Made by a program: the position numbers and the translations under genes. Shown here in pieces: positions 11,054-36,702 of a DNA stretch of 64,000 bases. The DNA lies in the NCBI GenBank assembly GCA_000434675.1, contig HF988640.1:29937-93936 (forward strand), read 5' to 3'. This stretch comes from Faecalibacterium sp. CAG:1138. GTDB lineage: Bacteria > Bacillota > Clostridia > Christensenellales > CAG-917. Position 1 is the stretch's first letter, and the number at the start of each line of letters is the position of its first letter. The notes below the pieces were generated by a model, which saw nothing but the letters and a program-made list of their open reading frames with translations, was not told where the DNA came from and searched no databases.

Positions 11054-12328
11054 TTATGCGTCGTTTTTTGAAGCTTCAATCGTTTGTTCTGCGGTTTCGA
11101 TTTTGTTTTGTGTTTCGTCGGTTTGGGCGGCTCGCTTTTGGAAGGATACGTAAAGCTCGTAGATTTTGTCGAAGTTTTCCTTAAACACAAAGACCACTTC
11201 CGGATCGAACTGTTCGCCGCTGCACCTGATGATTTCGCGGAGAGCGGCGTCCACGGACCAGCTGTCCTTATAGCTGCGTCTTGAGGTCAGGGCGTCGAAC
11301 ACGTCCACCACCGCCATCATGCGGCTGTAGAGGTGGATCTGTTCTTTTTTAAGCCCCAGATAACCATTGCCGTCCCAATGTTCGTGATGCTGTTCGGCGA
11401 TAACTCTCGCAATTTGCATGATTTCGCTCGGGGAGTTTTGCAGCAGCTCCTTGCCGTAGATAACGTGTTTTTTGACTTCCTCGAATTCTTCGGGGGTAAG
11501 CTTGCCGGGCTTGGACAGAATCTTTTCGTCAACGCCGAGCTTGCCGATGTCGTGCAGCATTGCCGCAACGGAAACGTTGTAGGCTTCCTTTTCGGGCAGG
11601 CCGAAGCCCTTGGCCAGAACGTACATATACGCACTTACGCGTTCTAAGTGCTCGCCCGTTTCTTCCGATTTGTTTTCGGCAATCTGGGCAAGGCTTTGCA
11701 CGACTTCGATTTGCGTGCTTTTCAGCTCTTCAACGAGCTTGTGGTTGAAGGTGACGTATTGAAAAACGTCGGTCATCATGTTCGAAGTAATGTGAGTCAG
11801 AAGCATGATGACGCCGGTGAGAATCAGATATTCGATAAGCCGCGGCAAAAATCCGTAGAGAAGGGCGGATTTATAGCTGACTATCAGCGGATCGTCGTAA
11901 ACAATCGAGAGCGGAACGCTCAGCACGTGTCCCACAAACATCGCTACCACGGTTTCTATGCTCGTAACAAGGTTCATTTGGCGGTTGAAATACAGACAGG
12001 ACGCCAGAATCGGCAGCATCAACACAAGCACCATGTGCATGGATAAAAAAGCAAAACCTATCATCACCAGAACGTTCGTCAGAGCTATCGAAACGTATTT
12101 CACCGACGGGCTCTGCACGTTCAGCACCACCGTCAACAAAAAAATCGTCAGCACCCCAACGCTCAGCACGCCGAACACTATGGAAACTTCGTCCTTGTTA
12201 AGTTTGAAGACCTCCATATAGTTCAGCAAAAACATCACGAGAAAGCCGACGAACGCGTCAAGCGCTATATAGCCGATCATCTTGTTGACCTTATATTCGT
12301 TTTTTATCAATGATTCCTTGTATTCCAT
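11054..12328 (-). CDS. Membrane-bound HD-GYP domain protein (c-di-GMP phosphodiesterase family)
   Basis: 424 aa. About 6 N-terminal TM helices followed by HD-GYP motifs 'AAMLHDIGK', 'HHEHWDGNGYLG', 'VVDVFDALTSRRSYK'. RBS GAGGGG upstream. Confidence 0.9.
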   Translation of the reverse strand: MEYKESLIKNEYKVNKMIGYIALDAFVGFLVMFLLNYMEVFKLNKDEVSIVFGVLSVGVLTIFLLTVVLNVQSPSVKYVSIALTNVLVMIGFAFLSMHMVLVLMLPILASCLYFNRQMNLVTSIETVVAMFVGHVLSVPLSIVYDDPLIVSYKSALLYGFLPRLIEYLILTGVIMLLTHITSNMMTDVFQYVTFNHKLVEELKSTQIEVVQSLAQIAENKSEETGEHLERVSAYMYVLAKGFGLPEKEAYNVSVAAMLHDIGKLGVDEKILSKPGKLTPEEFEEVKKHVIYGKELLQNSPSEIMQIARVIAEQHHEHWDGNGYLGLKKEQIHLYSRMMAVVDVFDALTSRRSYKDSWSVDAALREIIRCSGEQFDPEVVFVFKENFDKIYELYVSFQKRAAQTDETQNKIETAEQTIEASKNDA

Positions 12329-12466
12329 ACGACCCCTCTATATGAAACCTTTATATTCATTCTAACGCAAAACCCCCGCCAAATCAAGCGAAAAAGTCAA
12401 ATTCTCCGCCCGACGCAAAAAAAGATAAAAAAAACCGCAACCTCGCCGAAAAAACCGCAAAAACAG

Positions 12467-25069: not shown

Positions 25070-25166
25070 CAGCAGAGTAGGCAAGTCGCGTTAAGTGTTG
25101 CGGAATGGAATGTTGTCCGCAAACGAAAGGGGATTCTCTGCGGTGGCTTGCCGCATTCGTTGCTTA
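25070..25166 (+). promoter_or_regulatory. THF (tetrahydrofolate, folT-motif) riboswitch
   Basis: AGAGUAG..UCGCGUUAAGUG..GAAUGGAAUGU..CGCAAACGAA..GCGGUG..GCAUUCG matches block-for-block the remembered THF-I aptamer consensus. It lies directly upstream of an ECF S-component gene. Confidence 0.85.
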
Positions 25167-34119: not shown

Positions 34120-35103
34120 ATGAAAAAAATCACGACAATTCTTCTTTTATTGACGTTGGCGTTCGGGGTTATGGCTTTTGCCGCATGCGGAGATAAGCCG
34201 ACCGAAAGCGGTTCCGTCAGCACGGGCGCTCTGGGCGACGGCGCGGACACCGACGAGGATATCGACGTTCCCGCTTCTGCAGAAAACGATCCGGACGCGG
34301 CCGACGTCAAATATTTCAAATTCGAGCTTTACGGCAATTCGATGTCGAAGGGCTATATGATCACGGGCTGGAGCGACGTAACCGACGCTCGTCCTACCGA
34401 AATCATTTTCCCGACGGCCTACAACAAGCTGCCGGTAGTCGGCATCGCGCAAGGCGCGTTCAGAAACGACAAAACCATCACCAAAATCACTTTGGGCGAC
34501 AGCTTCAGGCTGATCAAAAAGCGCGCGTTCTGCGGTTGCGAAAACATCGGAAGCGTCAATCTTTCGGCCAAAATCACCAAAATCGCCGCCAGCGCGTTCA
34601 GAGATTGCAAAAAACTGACGTCCGTGGCCGTGCCGGAGAAAATCACCAGACTTTACGGCAGCACTTTTTCTGGTTGCGAATCGCTTGTCAGCGTTACGCT
34701 GCCGGAGAAGCTCGTTTATCTGGGAGTAAAGGTGTTCGAAGGCTGCAAAGCCTTAAAATCGGTGGAGATTCCGAAATCCGTAACGGAAATCGGCACCGCT
34801 TGCTTTATGAATTCGGGCGTTGAAAAAATTTCTCTTTCGCTCACCGGCATAAAAGCAATTCCGGTGGACTGCTTCTCGGGTTGCAAAAATCTGACTTCGG
34901 TTGCCGCAAGCAAGGTGACGAAAGTCGGCCTCGGCGCGTTTTACGGCTGCGAAAAGCTTAAATCCGTAACCGTGTCGTCAAACTGCGAATTCGGCATGTT
35001 GTCGCTGACCTTCAAAGGTTGCCCGGAGGACGTGAAAGTGAACAACAAACCGCTTTCGGACATTGAAATCATAACACCTCCGTCCGAAGATACGGGTGCG
35101 TAG
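34120..35103 (+). CDS. Lipoprotein with BspA-type leucine-rich repeats
   Basis: Lipobox 'MAFAACGD'. About 23-aa repeats of the form 'I..IG..AF..C..L.SV.(L/I)P' (LRR_5-like). Confidence 0.8.
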   Translation: MKKITTILLLLTLAFGVMAFAACGDKPTESGSVSTGALGDGADTDEDIDVPASAENDPDAADVKYFKFELYGNSMSKGYMITGWSDVTDARPTEIIFPTAYNKLPVVGIAQGAFRNDKTITKITLGDSFRLIKKRAFCGCENIGSVNLSAKITKIAASAFRDCKKLTSVAVPEKITRLYGSTFSGCESLVSVTLPEKLVYLGVKVFEGCKALKSVEIPKSVTEIGTACFMNSGVEKISLSLTGIKAIPVDCFSGCKNLTSVAASKVTKVGLGAFYGCEKLKSVTVSSNCEFGMLSLTFKGCPEDVKVNNKPLSDIEIITPPSEDTGA

Positions 35104-35164
35104 AAACAAAACCACGCAGAGGCTTTTGCCTCTGCGTTTTTTGACGGTTATTTTCAAAAAATCG

Positions 35165-35193
35165 TTGACTTTGCTTAAATTGTAGGGTATAAT
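35165..35193 (+). promoter_or_regulatory. Near-consensus sigma-A promoter driving the c-di-GMP riboswitch
   Basis: TTGACT (35165-35170), 17-nt spacer, TATAAT (35188-35193). Confidence 0.75.
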
Positions 35194-35199
35194 CAAATT

Positions 35200-35290
35200 G
35201 TAAATATCAGCAAACCCGTCGAAAGGCGGCGACGCAAAGCCATAGGGTCTAAGCCGAAAGGTATGACAGCCGGTTGCCGTTTTCTGACGT
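35200..35290 (+). promoter_or_regulatory. c-di-GMP-I (GEMM-I) riboswitch aptamer
   Basis: GCAAACCCGUCGAAAGGCGGCGACGCAAAGCCAUAGGGUCUAAGCCGAAAGGUAUGACAGCCGGUUGCCG has the conserved blocks in the same order as the Vc2-type aptamer (GCAAAC, CGAAAG, GACGCAAAGCC, GG.CUAA, CAGC.GG.U.CCG). Confidence 0.85.
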
Positions 35291-35302
35291 AAACAGATGG
35301 AG

Positions 35303-35340
35303 TTCTGTCGGCGGAGGTTCGGCAGGATTTTTGTTTTGTT
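35303..35340 (+). terminator. Intrinsic terminator (riboswitch expression platform)
   Basis: 8-bp stem TTCTGTCG/CGGCAGGA (two G-U pairs), 9-nt loop, then TTTTTGTTTTGTT. Confidence 0.65.
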
Positions 35341-35423
35341 AAGTGTTTTATTTTTATATGACCGAATCAATCCTCAACGGTTCGGTCCCGAAAGGACCCC
35401 TCTGCGACCTTTAACAAGGCCGT

Positions 35424-35459
35424 AAAAAGCGACAGCATTTGCTGTCGCTTTCCTTTTTT
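35424..35459. terminator. Bidirectional terminator (end of pepT / end of riboswitch read-through RNA)
   Basis: GCGACAGC-ATTT-GCTGTCGC with an A5 run upstream and TTTCCTTTTTT downstream. Confidence 0.75.
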
Positions 35460-35487
35460 CAATATCGGGAGTTTCCCCAAAGGGGAA

Positions 35488-36702
35488 CTATCTGTAAATT
35501 TCCACAAGATTCAGAATGACCTCGACCATTTTTTCCATAGACTGAACGGGGATATATTCGAATCTCCCGTGGAAGTTGTGTCCGCCGGTGGAAAGGTTAG
35601 GGCAAGGAAGCCCTCTGTGGCTAAGCGTCGCGCCGTCTGTGCCACCTCTGATAGGCACGACGATAGGGTTCACGCCGGCTTTTTCCATGGCCAGTTTGGC
35701 GTTATCTATGAGGTGGAAATTGTTTTTGATGATTTCAGACATATTGTAGTAGCTGTCCGTTACGTCGGCCACGCAGGTGCCTGCGCCGTATTTTTCGTTC
35801 AGTTTTTGGGAAAGGGAAACGAAGGTGCTCTTTTTGGCCTCGAATTTTGCCATGTCGTGATCGCGGATTATGTATTTTGCCACCAGATTTTCGACGCTTC
35901 CCGAAACCGACGACGCCATATAAAATCCTTCGTAACCGGAGGTGTAAAACGGAGTTTCTTTTTCGGGCAAAGAGTTTTGGAATTCCGCAAAAATTTCGAT
36001 GGCGTTTTTCAGTTTGTTTTTGCCTTCGCCGGGGTGAATGGAGGTGCCGTTTACGGTGAGAGTGGCGGCCGCGGCGTTGAAGTTTTCGTATTCGATTTCG
36101 CCGAGCTTGCCGCCGTCGACGGTGTAGCCGAAGTCTGCGCCGAAAGATGCGACGTCAAAGTATTTTACGCCTGCGCCCACTTCTTCGTCGGGGGTGAAGG
36201 CCACCTTGATTTCGCCGTGCTTAACGTTTGGATGAGAAACCAGATATTCGAGCGCAGTCATGATTTCGGCAACGCCCGCTTTGTCGTCCGCGCCGAGAAG
36301 AGTGGTGCCGTCGGTGAATATGATTTGCTGTCCGACGTAGGCGGAAATTTCGGGATATTCGGCGGCGGAGAAGACCACGTTTTTCTCCTCGTTCAGCACG
36401 ACGTCGCCGCCTTCATAGCGGATAATCTGCGGTTTCACGTTTGCGCCCGAAACTGCGGGACTTGTGTCAACGTGGGAGATAAAGCATATCTTTTTGCCGC
36501 TTAAAGTGCCGTTTGCGGCAAGAGTGGCGGTAACGTAGCCGTGTTCGTCCATTTTGGCGTCAAGGCCCAAGGCGGCAAGTTCGTTCTTAAGTTCCGCCAG
36601 CAGCACCAGCTGTTTTTCGGTGGAAGGATAAGAAGCGGAGTCCTCGTCGGAAGTGGTGTCGTAGGATACGTATTTCAAAAATTTTTCGATAACCGATTTC
36701 AT
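35488..36702 (-). CDS. pepT: Peptidase T (tripeptide aminopeptidase, M20B)
   Basis: Start at 'MKSVIEKFLKYVSYDTTSDE' with RBS GAGGT. 'HVDTSP', 'GADDKAG' and 'TPDEEVG' metal-ligand motifs. 404 aa, a typical PepT length. Confidence 0.92.
   Translation of the reverse strand: MKSVIEKFLKYVSYDTTSDEDSASYPSTEKQLVLLAELKNELAALGLDAKMDEHGYVTATLAANGTLSGKKICFISHVDTSPAVSGANVKPQIIRYEGGDVVLNEEKNVVFSAAEYPEISAYVGQQIIFTDGTTLLGADDKAGVAEIMTALEYLVSHPNVKHGEIKVAFTPDEEVGAGVKYFDVASFGADFGYTVDGGKLGEIEYENFNAAAATLTVNGTSIHPGEGKNKLKNAIEIFAEFQNSLPEKETPFYTSGYEGFYMASSVSGSVENLVAKYIIRDHDMAKFEAKKSTFVSLSQKLNEKYGAGTCVADVTDSYYNMSEIIKNNFHLIDNAKLAMEKAGVNPIVVPIRGGTDGATLSHRGLPCPNLSTGGHNFHGRFEYIPVQSMEKMVEVILNLVEIYR

Follow-up and report, generated by a model that had tools for sequence, protein, structure and literature searches.

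An orphan c-di-GMP-I riboswitch with a conserved noncoding tail: a predicted riboswitch-gated small RNA unit in a human-gut Clostridia lineage

Introduction

It is rare for a riboswitch to control a noncoding RNA (ncRNA) instead of an mRNA, and no more than a handful of such cases have been worked out. For cyclic di-GMP (c-di-GMP), the known cases are merRNA, a proposed sponge, and prophage antitoxin RNAs with a second promoter. In this study we analyzed a 64,000-nt stretch of DNA (the window) from contig HF988640.1 of Faecalibacterium sp. CAG:1138, in which a c-di-GMP-I riboswitch lies between an LRR_5 surface-protein gene and the convergent peptidase T gene (pepT), with no gene behind the aptamer. 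The original prediction, made from the sequence, was that its output would be a small RNA, ~140 nt long when terminated or 265 nt long on read-through, or else gated antisense transcription into pepT. A comparison of four lineages supports an ncRNA of ~140 nt or, on read-through, ~260 nt, and we consider it probable that this orphan unit, which consists of its own promoter, an aptamer, a terminator (T1), a conserved tail, and a second terminator (T2), makes a riboswitch-gated small RNA (sRNA).

The closest architectural match is found in Clostridioides difficile, where two class I c-di-GMP riboswitches, Cdi1_4 and Cdi1_5, each have a promoter of their own and precede no protein gene (Peltier et al. 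2020, PMC7699646). They give rise to a terminated RNA of ~140 nt and to a read-through ncRNA of ~400 nt, which is the RCd11/12 antitoxin and which ends at a Rho-independent terminator; less read-through occurs with c-di-GMP (PMC7699646). The unit described here shares with them the promoter of its own, the absence of a protein gene, and a terminator common to the convergent gene, and their OFF behavior is the same as that predicted for it. The C. difficile elements differ in being part of a prophage, in producing an antitoxin RNA that is antisense in cis to the convergent gene of a type I toxin, and in having another promoter, stronger than the first, 3' of the riboswitch. Our unit, in contrast, has no toxin-like open reading frame (ORF) on the opposite strand, no internal promoter, and an unrelated tail; its convergent gene is the chromosomal pepT, with which it overlaps at the terminator only. 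The C. difficile genome also contains an unexplained orphan c-di-GMP-I riboswitch (PMC11477304).

Other systems share single aspects of this arrangement. In EutX of Enterococcus faecalis and Rli55 of Listeria monocytogenes, as summarized in a later account, the riboswitch also forms the 5' part of an sRNA; the ligand truncates the RNA, and the 3' part is made without ligand (PMC8237595). Their ligand is adenosylcobalamin (AdoCbl), and the 3' part serves, by means of two hairpins, as a decoy for EutV, an ANTAR regulator, whereas no such pair of hairpins is present here. The merRNA of Bdellovibrio bacteriovorus is likewise a c-di-GMP riboswitch within an ncRNA that has no conserved downstream ORF and occurs in a narrow lineage, but its length is 445 nt, its expression is massive, and it has been put forward as a c-di-GMP sponge, and no controlled terminator followed by a conserved tail has been described for it (PMC3627812). 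Cd1, in the C. difficile flgB leader, has the same class of aptamer, a coexisting terminator, and an antiterminator that uses the aptamer 3' strand (PMC9262584); it controls a large flagellar operon, whereas this unit could control only a noncoding tail of ~120 nt. In Bc1 of the Bacillus cereus group, a c-di-GMP-I aptamer is also followed by two intrinsic terminators (PMC11218506), but these are 28 bp apart in an mRNA leader and genes follow, whereas here the terminators are ~85 nt apart and bracket a conserved RNA module with no gene.

Results

Conservation of the unit in place

Coordinates of the features are collected in Table 1. The window pepT sequence was found on 23 human-gut metagenome contigs, in all of which the gene order was identical and the intergenic region had 0–4 differences in 384 nt. 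The order of LRR_5 gene, riboswitch unit, and convergent pepT was also kept in three diverged lineages, L101, L091, and L092, whose pepT amino-acid identities to the window are 97.5, 86, and 81% and whose identities at pepT four-fold degenerate sites are 0.90, 0.60, and 0.57, respectively. The covariation and conservation results below rest on these three lineages and the window, and the four-fold sites of L091 and L092 (57–60% identity) served as the neutral yardstick. The nearest pepT loci in GTDB are labeled as Clostridia or Christensenellaceae metagenome-assembled genomes (MAGs).

The proposed sigma-70-type promoter sequence is present. Its two hexamers and their 17-nt spacing are retained in the four lineages, with TTGACA as the −35 hexamer in L092, where the spacer sequence is almost wholly different; transcription is predicted to start near 35200. 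The GEMM-I aptamer scored 69.4 bits with RF01051, for which the gathering score is 35 (E = 1.6e-11), and 68–71 of 71 positions (96–100%) are identical across the four lineages. The P2 loop is a GAAA tetraloop (35220–35223) in a conserved model column, P3 holds UCUAAG...GUAUGA, a predicted tetraloop receptor of the CCUAAG/UAUGG type that is aligned to conserved model columns, and the equivalents of A47 (GACGC-A) and C92 (C35277) are both present. Judged by its sequence, the aptamer is a bona fide member of the c-di-GMP-I family.

The equivalent of G20 (Rfam model position 11, G), which we take from the Rfam alignment and the Vc2 numbering to lie just 5' of GCAAA, is A35209 in the window and is also A in L101 and L091; it is G in L092. 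Position 20 of GEMM-I riboswitches selects between c-di-GMP and 3'3'-cyclic GMP-AMP (3'3'-cGAMP), and natural A variants can be bispecific; Vc2 with the G20A change binds both c-di-GMP (53 nM) and 3'3'-cGAMP (120 nM) (PMC6140456). With A or G at this position, ligand specificity may differ among these close lineages.

Absence of a coding gene

The original prediction had also stated that no plus-strand ORF follows the aptamer. Taken literally this did not hold, in that a 42-codon ATG ORF (35297–35425, with a hydrophobic stretch) and a 23-codon GTG ORF are present; its substance, that there is no gene behind the aptamer, stood. Both ORFs lack a Shine-Dalgarno sequence and are not conserved; the start of the 42-codon ORF at 35297 reads ATG-TGA in L091, and the ATG is deleted in L092. 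An 18-codon ORF noted earlier (35358–35414), again without a Shine-Dalgarno sequence, is present as well, but is frame-shifted in L091 and has ACG in place of ATG in L092. On both strands of the four lineages, no ORF conserved in start codon, frame, or length was found. Under the tail, the minus strand of the window has a 23-codon nonhydrophobic ORF and that of L091 an unrelated ORF of 55 codons that starts with TTG; L101 and L092 lack an ORF there, and a small hydrophobic ORF of the type I toxin kind was not found opposite the ncRNA in any of the four lineages. An ordinary gene downstream of the aptamer in relatives, which had been named as the finding that would speak against a functional unit, was looked for in the three diverged lineages and found in none. 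On the evidence of these alignments, the locus encodes no conserved peptide and has been conserved in place across four lineages, and it is predicted to be a self-contained transcription unit.

Selection on the tail

Three parts of the tail were far above neutral identity, and two drift. The C-rich stretch is identical at 23 of 23 nt in all four lineages; the A/U-rich stretch is identical to the window at 19/19, 18/19, and 18/22 positions in L101, L091, and L092; and T2 is 79–92% identical in these lineages. The drifting parts are hairpin 1 and the spacer at 35411–35423, which in L092 are 50% and 54% identical to the window, respectively. In hairpin 1 all nine pairs are kept (100% of cells paired) and four of the nine are changed on both sides, from GACCGAAUC/GGUUCGGUC to GGCCGACAA/UUGUCGGCC. 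This covariation was matched by 2 of 500 shuffles, and partners slid by 1–3 columns pair at 29–46%. Measured against the neutral sites, the tail is under strong purifying selection.

Aligning the tail across relatives had been recommended, and it was this alignment that yielded the covarying hairpin and the invariant 23 nt. It also bears on the earlier proposal of two mutually exclusive hairpins in the tail. The GACCGAA/UUCGGUC hairpin at 35360–35387 is present and is the one that covaries. The GGUCC-CGAAA-GGACC sequence of hairpin 2 is present at 35384–35398, but its pairing shows no covariation, and its only change produces a C-A mismatch in L092. Because this pair-breaking change is the compensating partner of a change in hairpin 1, the proposal of mutually exclusive hairpins is unsupported.

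Searches beyond the four lineages were made in several ways. A regular-expression scan of GTDB species genomes (80 pepT loci, all of ≤66% identity) and an Rfam scan of the 16 closest GTDB pepT loci gave no c-di-GMP-I element beside pepT. Outside the clade, pepT (≤68% identity) is found in other contexts, and synteny differs in the 68% group. Apart from the species itself, scanning metagenome contigs with a tail 20-mer brought up a single close relative, and the context never differed; a search anchored on the LRR protein gave no further lineage; and the sole match in a BLAST search of plasmids was another c-di-GMP-I aptamer, from Ruminococcus albus.

Some candidate relatives were rejected. The downstream DNA of a partial pepT contig (L103) is unrelated. 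L093 is not an independent lineage; it comes from the same species, and what diverges is the 5' end of its pepT. Its riboswitch unit, its LRR gene, and the greater part of its pepT are ~100% identical to the window, and the first ~400 nt of its pepT (L093 positions 176–600) are only 53–85% identical, which may reflect a recombinant allele or an assembly chimera. Six viral contigs of one family in IMG/VR (L104–L109) carry the tail 18-mer CGAAAGGACCCCTCTGCG, which in them sits within a different long hairpin, GCCGCAGAG...CTCTGCGG; because the flanks are unrelated, we judged these to be chance matches.

Terminators and the predicted switch

T1 is present as proposed, with an energy of −13.9 kcal/mol (z −2.9), and its CUGUCG/CGGCAG core and U-rich tract were found in all four lineages. 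T2, the bidirectional terminator proposed to precede the pepT 3' end, is also present (−18 kcal/mol, z −6.75); it has a U tract on each strand, and 10 of its 11 pairs are invariant among the lineages. T2 would end both the read-through RNA on the plus strand and pepT on the minus strand. A promoter scan showed no promoter-like site between T1 and T2, and because there is no promoter inside it, the tail would be expressed only through read-through of T1. A permissive Rfam scan of 35100–35500 gave no credible family for the tail, the best nonaptamer matches being terminator-like fragments.

The original prediction had missed a further structure, a long hairpin composed of the helices GCCG/CGGC, UUUCUG/CGGAGG, CG/CG, and ACAGA/UCUGU, which overlaps the aptamer 3' end. 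Because it uses up the T1 5' arm and the CGGC of the T1 3' arm, we designate it the antiterminator. Its energies are −17.3 kcal/mol (z −2.3) in the window, −17.0 (z −2.6) in L091, and −18.4 (z −3.2) in L092. When P2 and P3 were held as hairpins, a constraint that mimics their formation during transcription, the platform of each of the four lineages had its lowest energy when folded into the antiterminator and not into T1. In L092 the UU of the linker is changed to CC and the partner CGGAGG to CAGAG, giving a perfect CUCUG/CAGAG helix; these changes suggest that antiterminator pairing is what selection maintains.

Blocking GCCGU (35276–35280) alone was predicted to flip the fold from antiterminator to T1 in four of four lineages. 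There is no overlap between the aptamer and T1, and T1 was retained in the aptamer-constrained fold. The strand that forms the outer GCCG helix of the antiterminator contains the C92 equivalent, and C92 is the base to which one of the two ligand guanines is paired (PMC6140456). In the OFF layout of Cd1, as opposed to the ON layout of pilM, aptamer and terminator coexist and the antiterminator overlaps the aptamer 3' strand (PMC9262584). Because blocking GCCG gives T1 and because the layout matches that of Cd1, an OFF switch is predicted. As modeled, the antiterminator makes the unit a conventional Cd1-type platform, and this platform is probably an OFF switch, the direction of control being uncertain. 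In the absence of ligand, GCCG and the linker would pair with the 5' arm of T1 and with some of the 3' arm to form the antiterminator, and RNA polymerase would read on to T2, producing the RNA of ~260 nt. With c-di-GMP bound, GCCG would be kept in the binding pocket, so that T1 would form and an aptamer-only RNA of ~135 nt would be released.

Two further observations concern repeated and long-range pairing elements. A (U/C)UCUG element occurs three times, at 35282–35286 (linker), 35303–35307 (T1 5' arm), and 35401–35405 (invariant tail), and CAGA(G)G-like partners of it occur twice, at 35294–35300 and 35312–35318; the linker copy in L092 is CCUCUG and thus matches the copy in the tail exactly. 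The invariant stretch paired with the 5' domain no better than shuffled seeds did, also in a long-range helix from RNAalifold, and such pairing was rejected.

Possible action of the tail

C-rich-motif sRNAs of Bacillota such as RsaE/RoxS have unpaired C-rich motifs that pair with G-rich Shine-Dalgarno sequences. The full-length RNA most likely acts in trans through C-rich motifs of this anti-Shine-Dalgarno-like kind. The UCCU that is always in the loop of hairpin 1 (−12.3 kcal/mol, z −2.9) and the CCCCUCU of the invariant stretch, both predicted to be exposed, would pair with Shine-Dalgarno regions and block translation. The tail has no sequence or Rfam similarity to RsaE/RoxS, which to our knowledge are not riboswitch-gated, and the resemblance is a lead.

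Candidate targets were ranked by the duplex energy of the invariant stretch, which occurs once in the window, with ~50 crude start regions within the window. The start region of a gene for an HD-GYP-type protein ranked best of the ~50 (−26.1 kcal/mol). In it, AGAGGGGUC (12331–12339) is an exact 9-nt complement of tail bases 35395–35403 and is followed by another 7-bp helix; the predicted duplex spans the Shine-Dalgarno sequence and the AUG, and the 9-mer occurs nowhere else in the window. Shuffled seeds did equally well against any start region in 20 of 400 cases and had the HD-GYP gene as their top target in 5 of 400; against the HD-GYP start region itself, 1 of 500 did as well. With its one available ortholog not supporting the pairing, the HD-GYP mRNA is a lead only. 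If it is followed further, the GACCCCUCU...CCUUU stretch of the full-length RNA would at low c-di-GMP pair with the HD-GYP mRNA at 12325–12352 (minus strand) and repress the phosphodiesterase, and at high c-di-GMP the stop at T1 would derepress it. We consider it distinctly improbable that a c-di-GMP-gated trans-acting sRNA closes a homeostatic loop through this phosphodiesterase, with A20 adding a response to 3'3'-cGAMP in some lineages.

Neighboring genes and other elements

The terminator of the upstream LRR_5 gene has its stem at 35114–35137, with the T run after it. In the alignment, the stem sequence varies by lineage and its self-complementarity is kept (ACGCAGAGGC/GCCTCTGCGT, GCGCGGTGGC/GCCGCCGCGT, and ATGCGACGGA/TCCGTCGCAT). 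This terminator would insulate the riboswitch unit against transcription from upstream. The convergent pepT, by Pfam and homologs, and the position of the next plus-strand gene, both part of the original prediction, were confirmed; what had been called a membrane HD-GYP phosphodiesterase is of the HD-GYP type by the HD_5 match and has about five hydrophobic N-terminal segments. The signature of this protein is HHEHWDGNGYL, that is, with GYL instead of GYP, and its gene has a promoter, TTGACT...TAGAAT, that leaves a 5' untranslated region (UTR) of only ~28 nt.

An additional hairpin, GUUUCCCC-AAA-GGGGAAC (35462–35486), lies between T2 and the pepT stop codon and lacks a U tract on both strands. 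In the alignment it is present in the window and L101 and missing in L091 and L092; it has a subthreshold match to CRISPR-DR58 (21.8 bits against 38) that is probably due to chance. Elsewhere in the window there is a strong match to the tetrahydrofolate (THF) riboswitch (RF01831) at 25071–25164 on the plus strand (81.1 bits against a gathering score of 36).

Table 1 Features of the riboswitch unit, its surroundings, and the candidate target, in window coordinates
Feature	Position	Strand	Description
Sigma-70-type promoter	35165–35193	+	TTGACT-17-TATAAT; 11/12 consensus matches
c-di-GMP-I (GEMM-I) aptamer	35199–35281	+	Rfam RF01051, full model 1–87
Predicted antiterminator hairpin	35276–35323	+	35276–35298 paired with 35304–35323
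Terminator T1, intrinsic, predicted riboswitch-controlled	35299–35340	+	Stem 35299–35331, then UUUUUGUUUUGUU
A/U-rich single-stranded stretch	35341–35359	+	AAGUGUUUUAUUUUUAUAU; conserved
Hairpin 1	35360–35387	+	GACCGAAUC/GGUUCGGUC; 9-bp stem, 10–11-nt loop
C-rich invariant stretch	35387–35409	+	CCCGAAAGGACCCCUCUGCGACC; predicted largely single-stranded; candidate anti-Shine-Dalgarno seed
Bidirectional terminator T2	35424–35460	both	Stem 35426–35451
Intergenic stretch between LRR_5 gene and convergent pepT			~300 nt; houses whole riboswitch unit
LRR_5 surface-protein gene	34120–35103	+	Pfam LRR_5
Intrinsic terminator of LRR_5 gene	35114–35147	+	10-bp stem, 7 GC pairs, then TTTTTT
pepT (peptidase T, M20 family)	35488–36702	-	Pfam M20 and M20_dimer; homologs named peptidase T
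Next plus-strand gene, Fe-ADH (Pfam)	starts 36875	+	1.4 kb on, past convergent pepT
HD-GYP-type protein gene	11054–12328	-	Pfam HD_5, 5e-33
Candidate trans target	12325–12352	-	5' UTR, Shine-Dalgarno sequence, and start codon of HD-GYP gene

Discussion

The switch might work in the opposite direction. Without ligand, the 3' strand of P2 would capture the linker in a 16-bp anti-aptamer helix and T1 would form; with ligand, the linker would be freed to form the inner part of the antiterminator and the full-length RNA would be made. Folding without constraints gives the anti-aptamer helix together with T1 as the structure of lowest energy when the sequence extends through the U tract (−25.6 kcal/mol, z −2.2), and the linker bases CUGACG are invariant. 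However, this helix shows no covariation, one of its pairs is broken in L092, and it must unfold a P2 and a P3 that were already formed during transcription. Moreover, the outer GCCG/CGGC helix of the antiterminator uses the C92 equivalent, a required ligand contact, and its block leads to T1 in all four lineages; the non-overlap of aptamer and T1 is also the OFF layout (PMC9262584). Weighing these points, we regard an ON switch as unlikely. It is quite unlikely that the short aptamer RNA is the sole product, serving to buffer or soak up c-di-GMP in the manner proposed for merRNA or acting in trans as a terminated riboswitch, and that the tail is a spacer to the pepT terminator. Such a role would agree with the near-consensus promoter, the presence of T1 in every thermodynamic prediction of the complete RNA, the merRNA precedent (PMC3627812), and the failure of the Bc1 riboswitch to respond to ligand (PMC11218506). 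A spacer would be expected to drift, yet identity is 100% at 35387–35409 and 82–100% at 35341–35359, compared with 57–60% at neutral sites, and hairpin 1 has been maintained through four compensatory changes; a conserved antiterminator, too, implies that read-through matters.

The tail may also act on a protein. A decoy of the EutX/Rli55 type, in which hairpin 1 and the AAGGA-containing invariant stretch would sequester an RNA-binding regulator, is an alternative equal to the HD-GYP link, although the probability that we assign to it is as low as that of the aptamer RNA being the sole product. Absolute invariance over 23 nt goes beyond the requirements of a typical sRNA seed, the match in the candidate mRNA target is not conserved, and riboswitch-gated decoys have precedents in EutX and Rli55 (PMC8237595). 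But the tail has a single GGA motif only, inspection of its sequence showed no ANTAR-type pair of hexaloop hairpins, and the locus has no linked gene for a partner protein. Control of pepT in cis, whether by convergent transcription, by 3'-end overlap at T2, or by the gated antisense read-through that the original prediction had raised, is very improbable. The convergent position is indeed kept in all four lineages, and the two RNAs would share ~35 complementary nt at T2. Antisense read-through is made unlikely by the strength of T2 and its conservation on both strands in all lineages; in addition, the invariant stretch lies upstream of T2, beyond any pepT transcript, and the hairpin at 35462–35486 is absent from L091 and L092. 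We know of no link between peptidase T and c-di-GMP, which also counts against such control. Finally, very small ORFs follow several of the c-di-GMP-I riboswitches of C. difficile (PMC11477304), and the 42-codon ORF with its hydrophobic stretch might suggest a leader of a small protein gene, or one decaying after gene loss. With no ORF common to the lineages and none preceded by a Shine-Dalgarno sequence, and with conservation beyond the neutral level in the promoter, the antiterminator, hairpin 1, and the C-rich stretch, we consider a leader of either kind extremely improbable.

Several points weigh against the interpretation that we prefer, that of an OFF switch gating a trans-acting sRNA. 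The unconstrained fold of the full RNA contains T1 and the 16-bp helix between the P2 3' strand and the linker (35217–35233 with 35272–35289), a fold that by itself would leave T1 without regulation, and this helix is thermodynamically competitive without ligand; if it formed fast, it would favor T1 without ligand, and the unit would be an ON switch or no switch. By inspection of its sequence, the P1 of the aptamer is very weak. The two-terminator riboswitch Bc1 showed no response to c-di-GMP in vitro or in vivo (PMC11218506), and promoter use, both 3' ends, and the ligand response of our unit are all predicted. There are only four lineages, nearly all of the covariation comes from L092, and in the metagenome, pepT-anchored, and LRR-anchored scans the tail was found in a narrow clade only. 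Action in trans is the weakest step. In the only ortholog of the HD-GYP gene, L102 (82% identical protein), just the GAGGGGU core of the complementary region is kept; the L102 start region scores no better than shuffles, and an L102 copy of the riboswitch was not recovered.

The main interpretation of the original prediction holds, though the unit is less unprecedented than it first appeared. Its kind of element is already known; its tail is a new RNA, and what is new is a promoter-to-terminator c-di-GMP unit that has such a tail as its sole output. As a clean chromosomal unit in which only a tail of ~120 nt can be controlled, it offers a compact test case for the wiring of a second messenger to post-transcriptional regulation. 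Its host belongs to an uncultured human-gut lineage of Clostridia in which c-di-GMP signaling is essentially unstudied. If it is true that the tail targets the HD-GYP phosphodiesterase, the unit would feed back on the level of c-di-GMP through RNA only.

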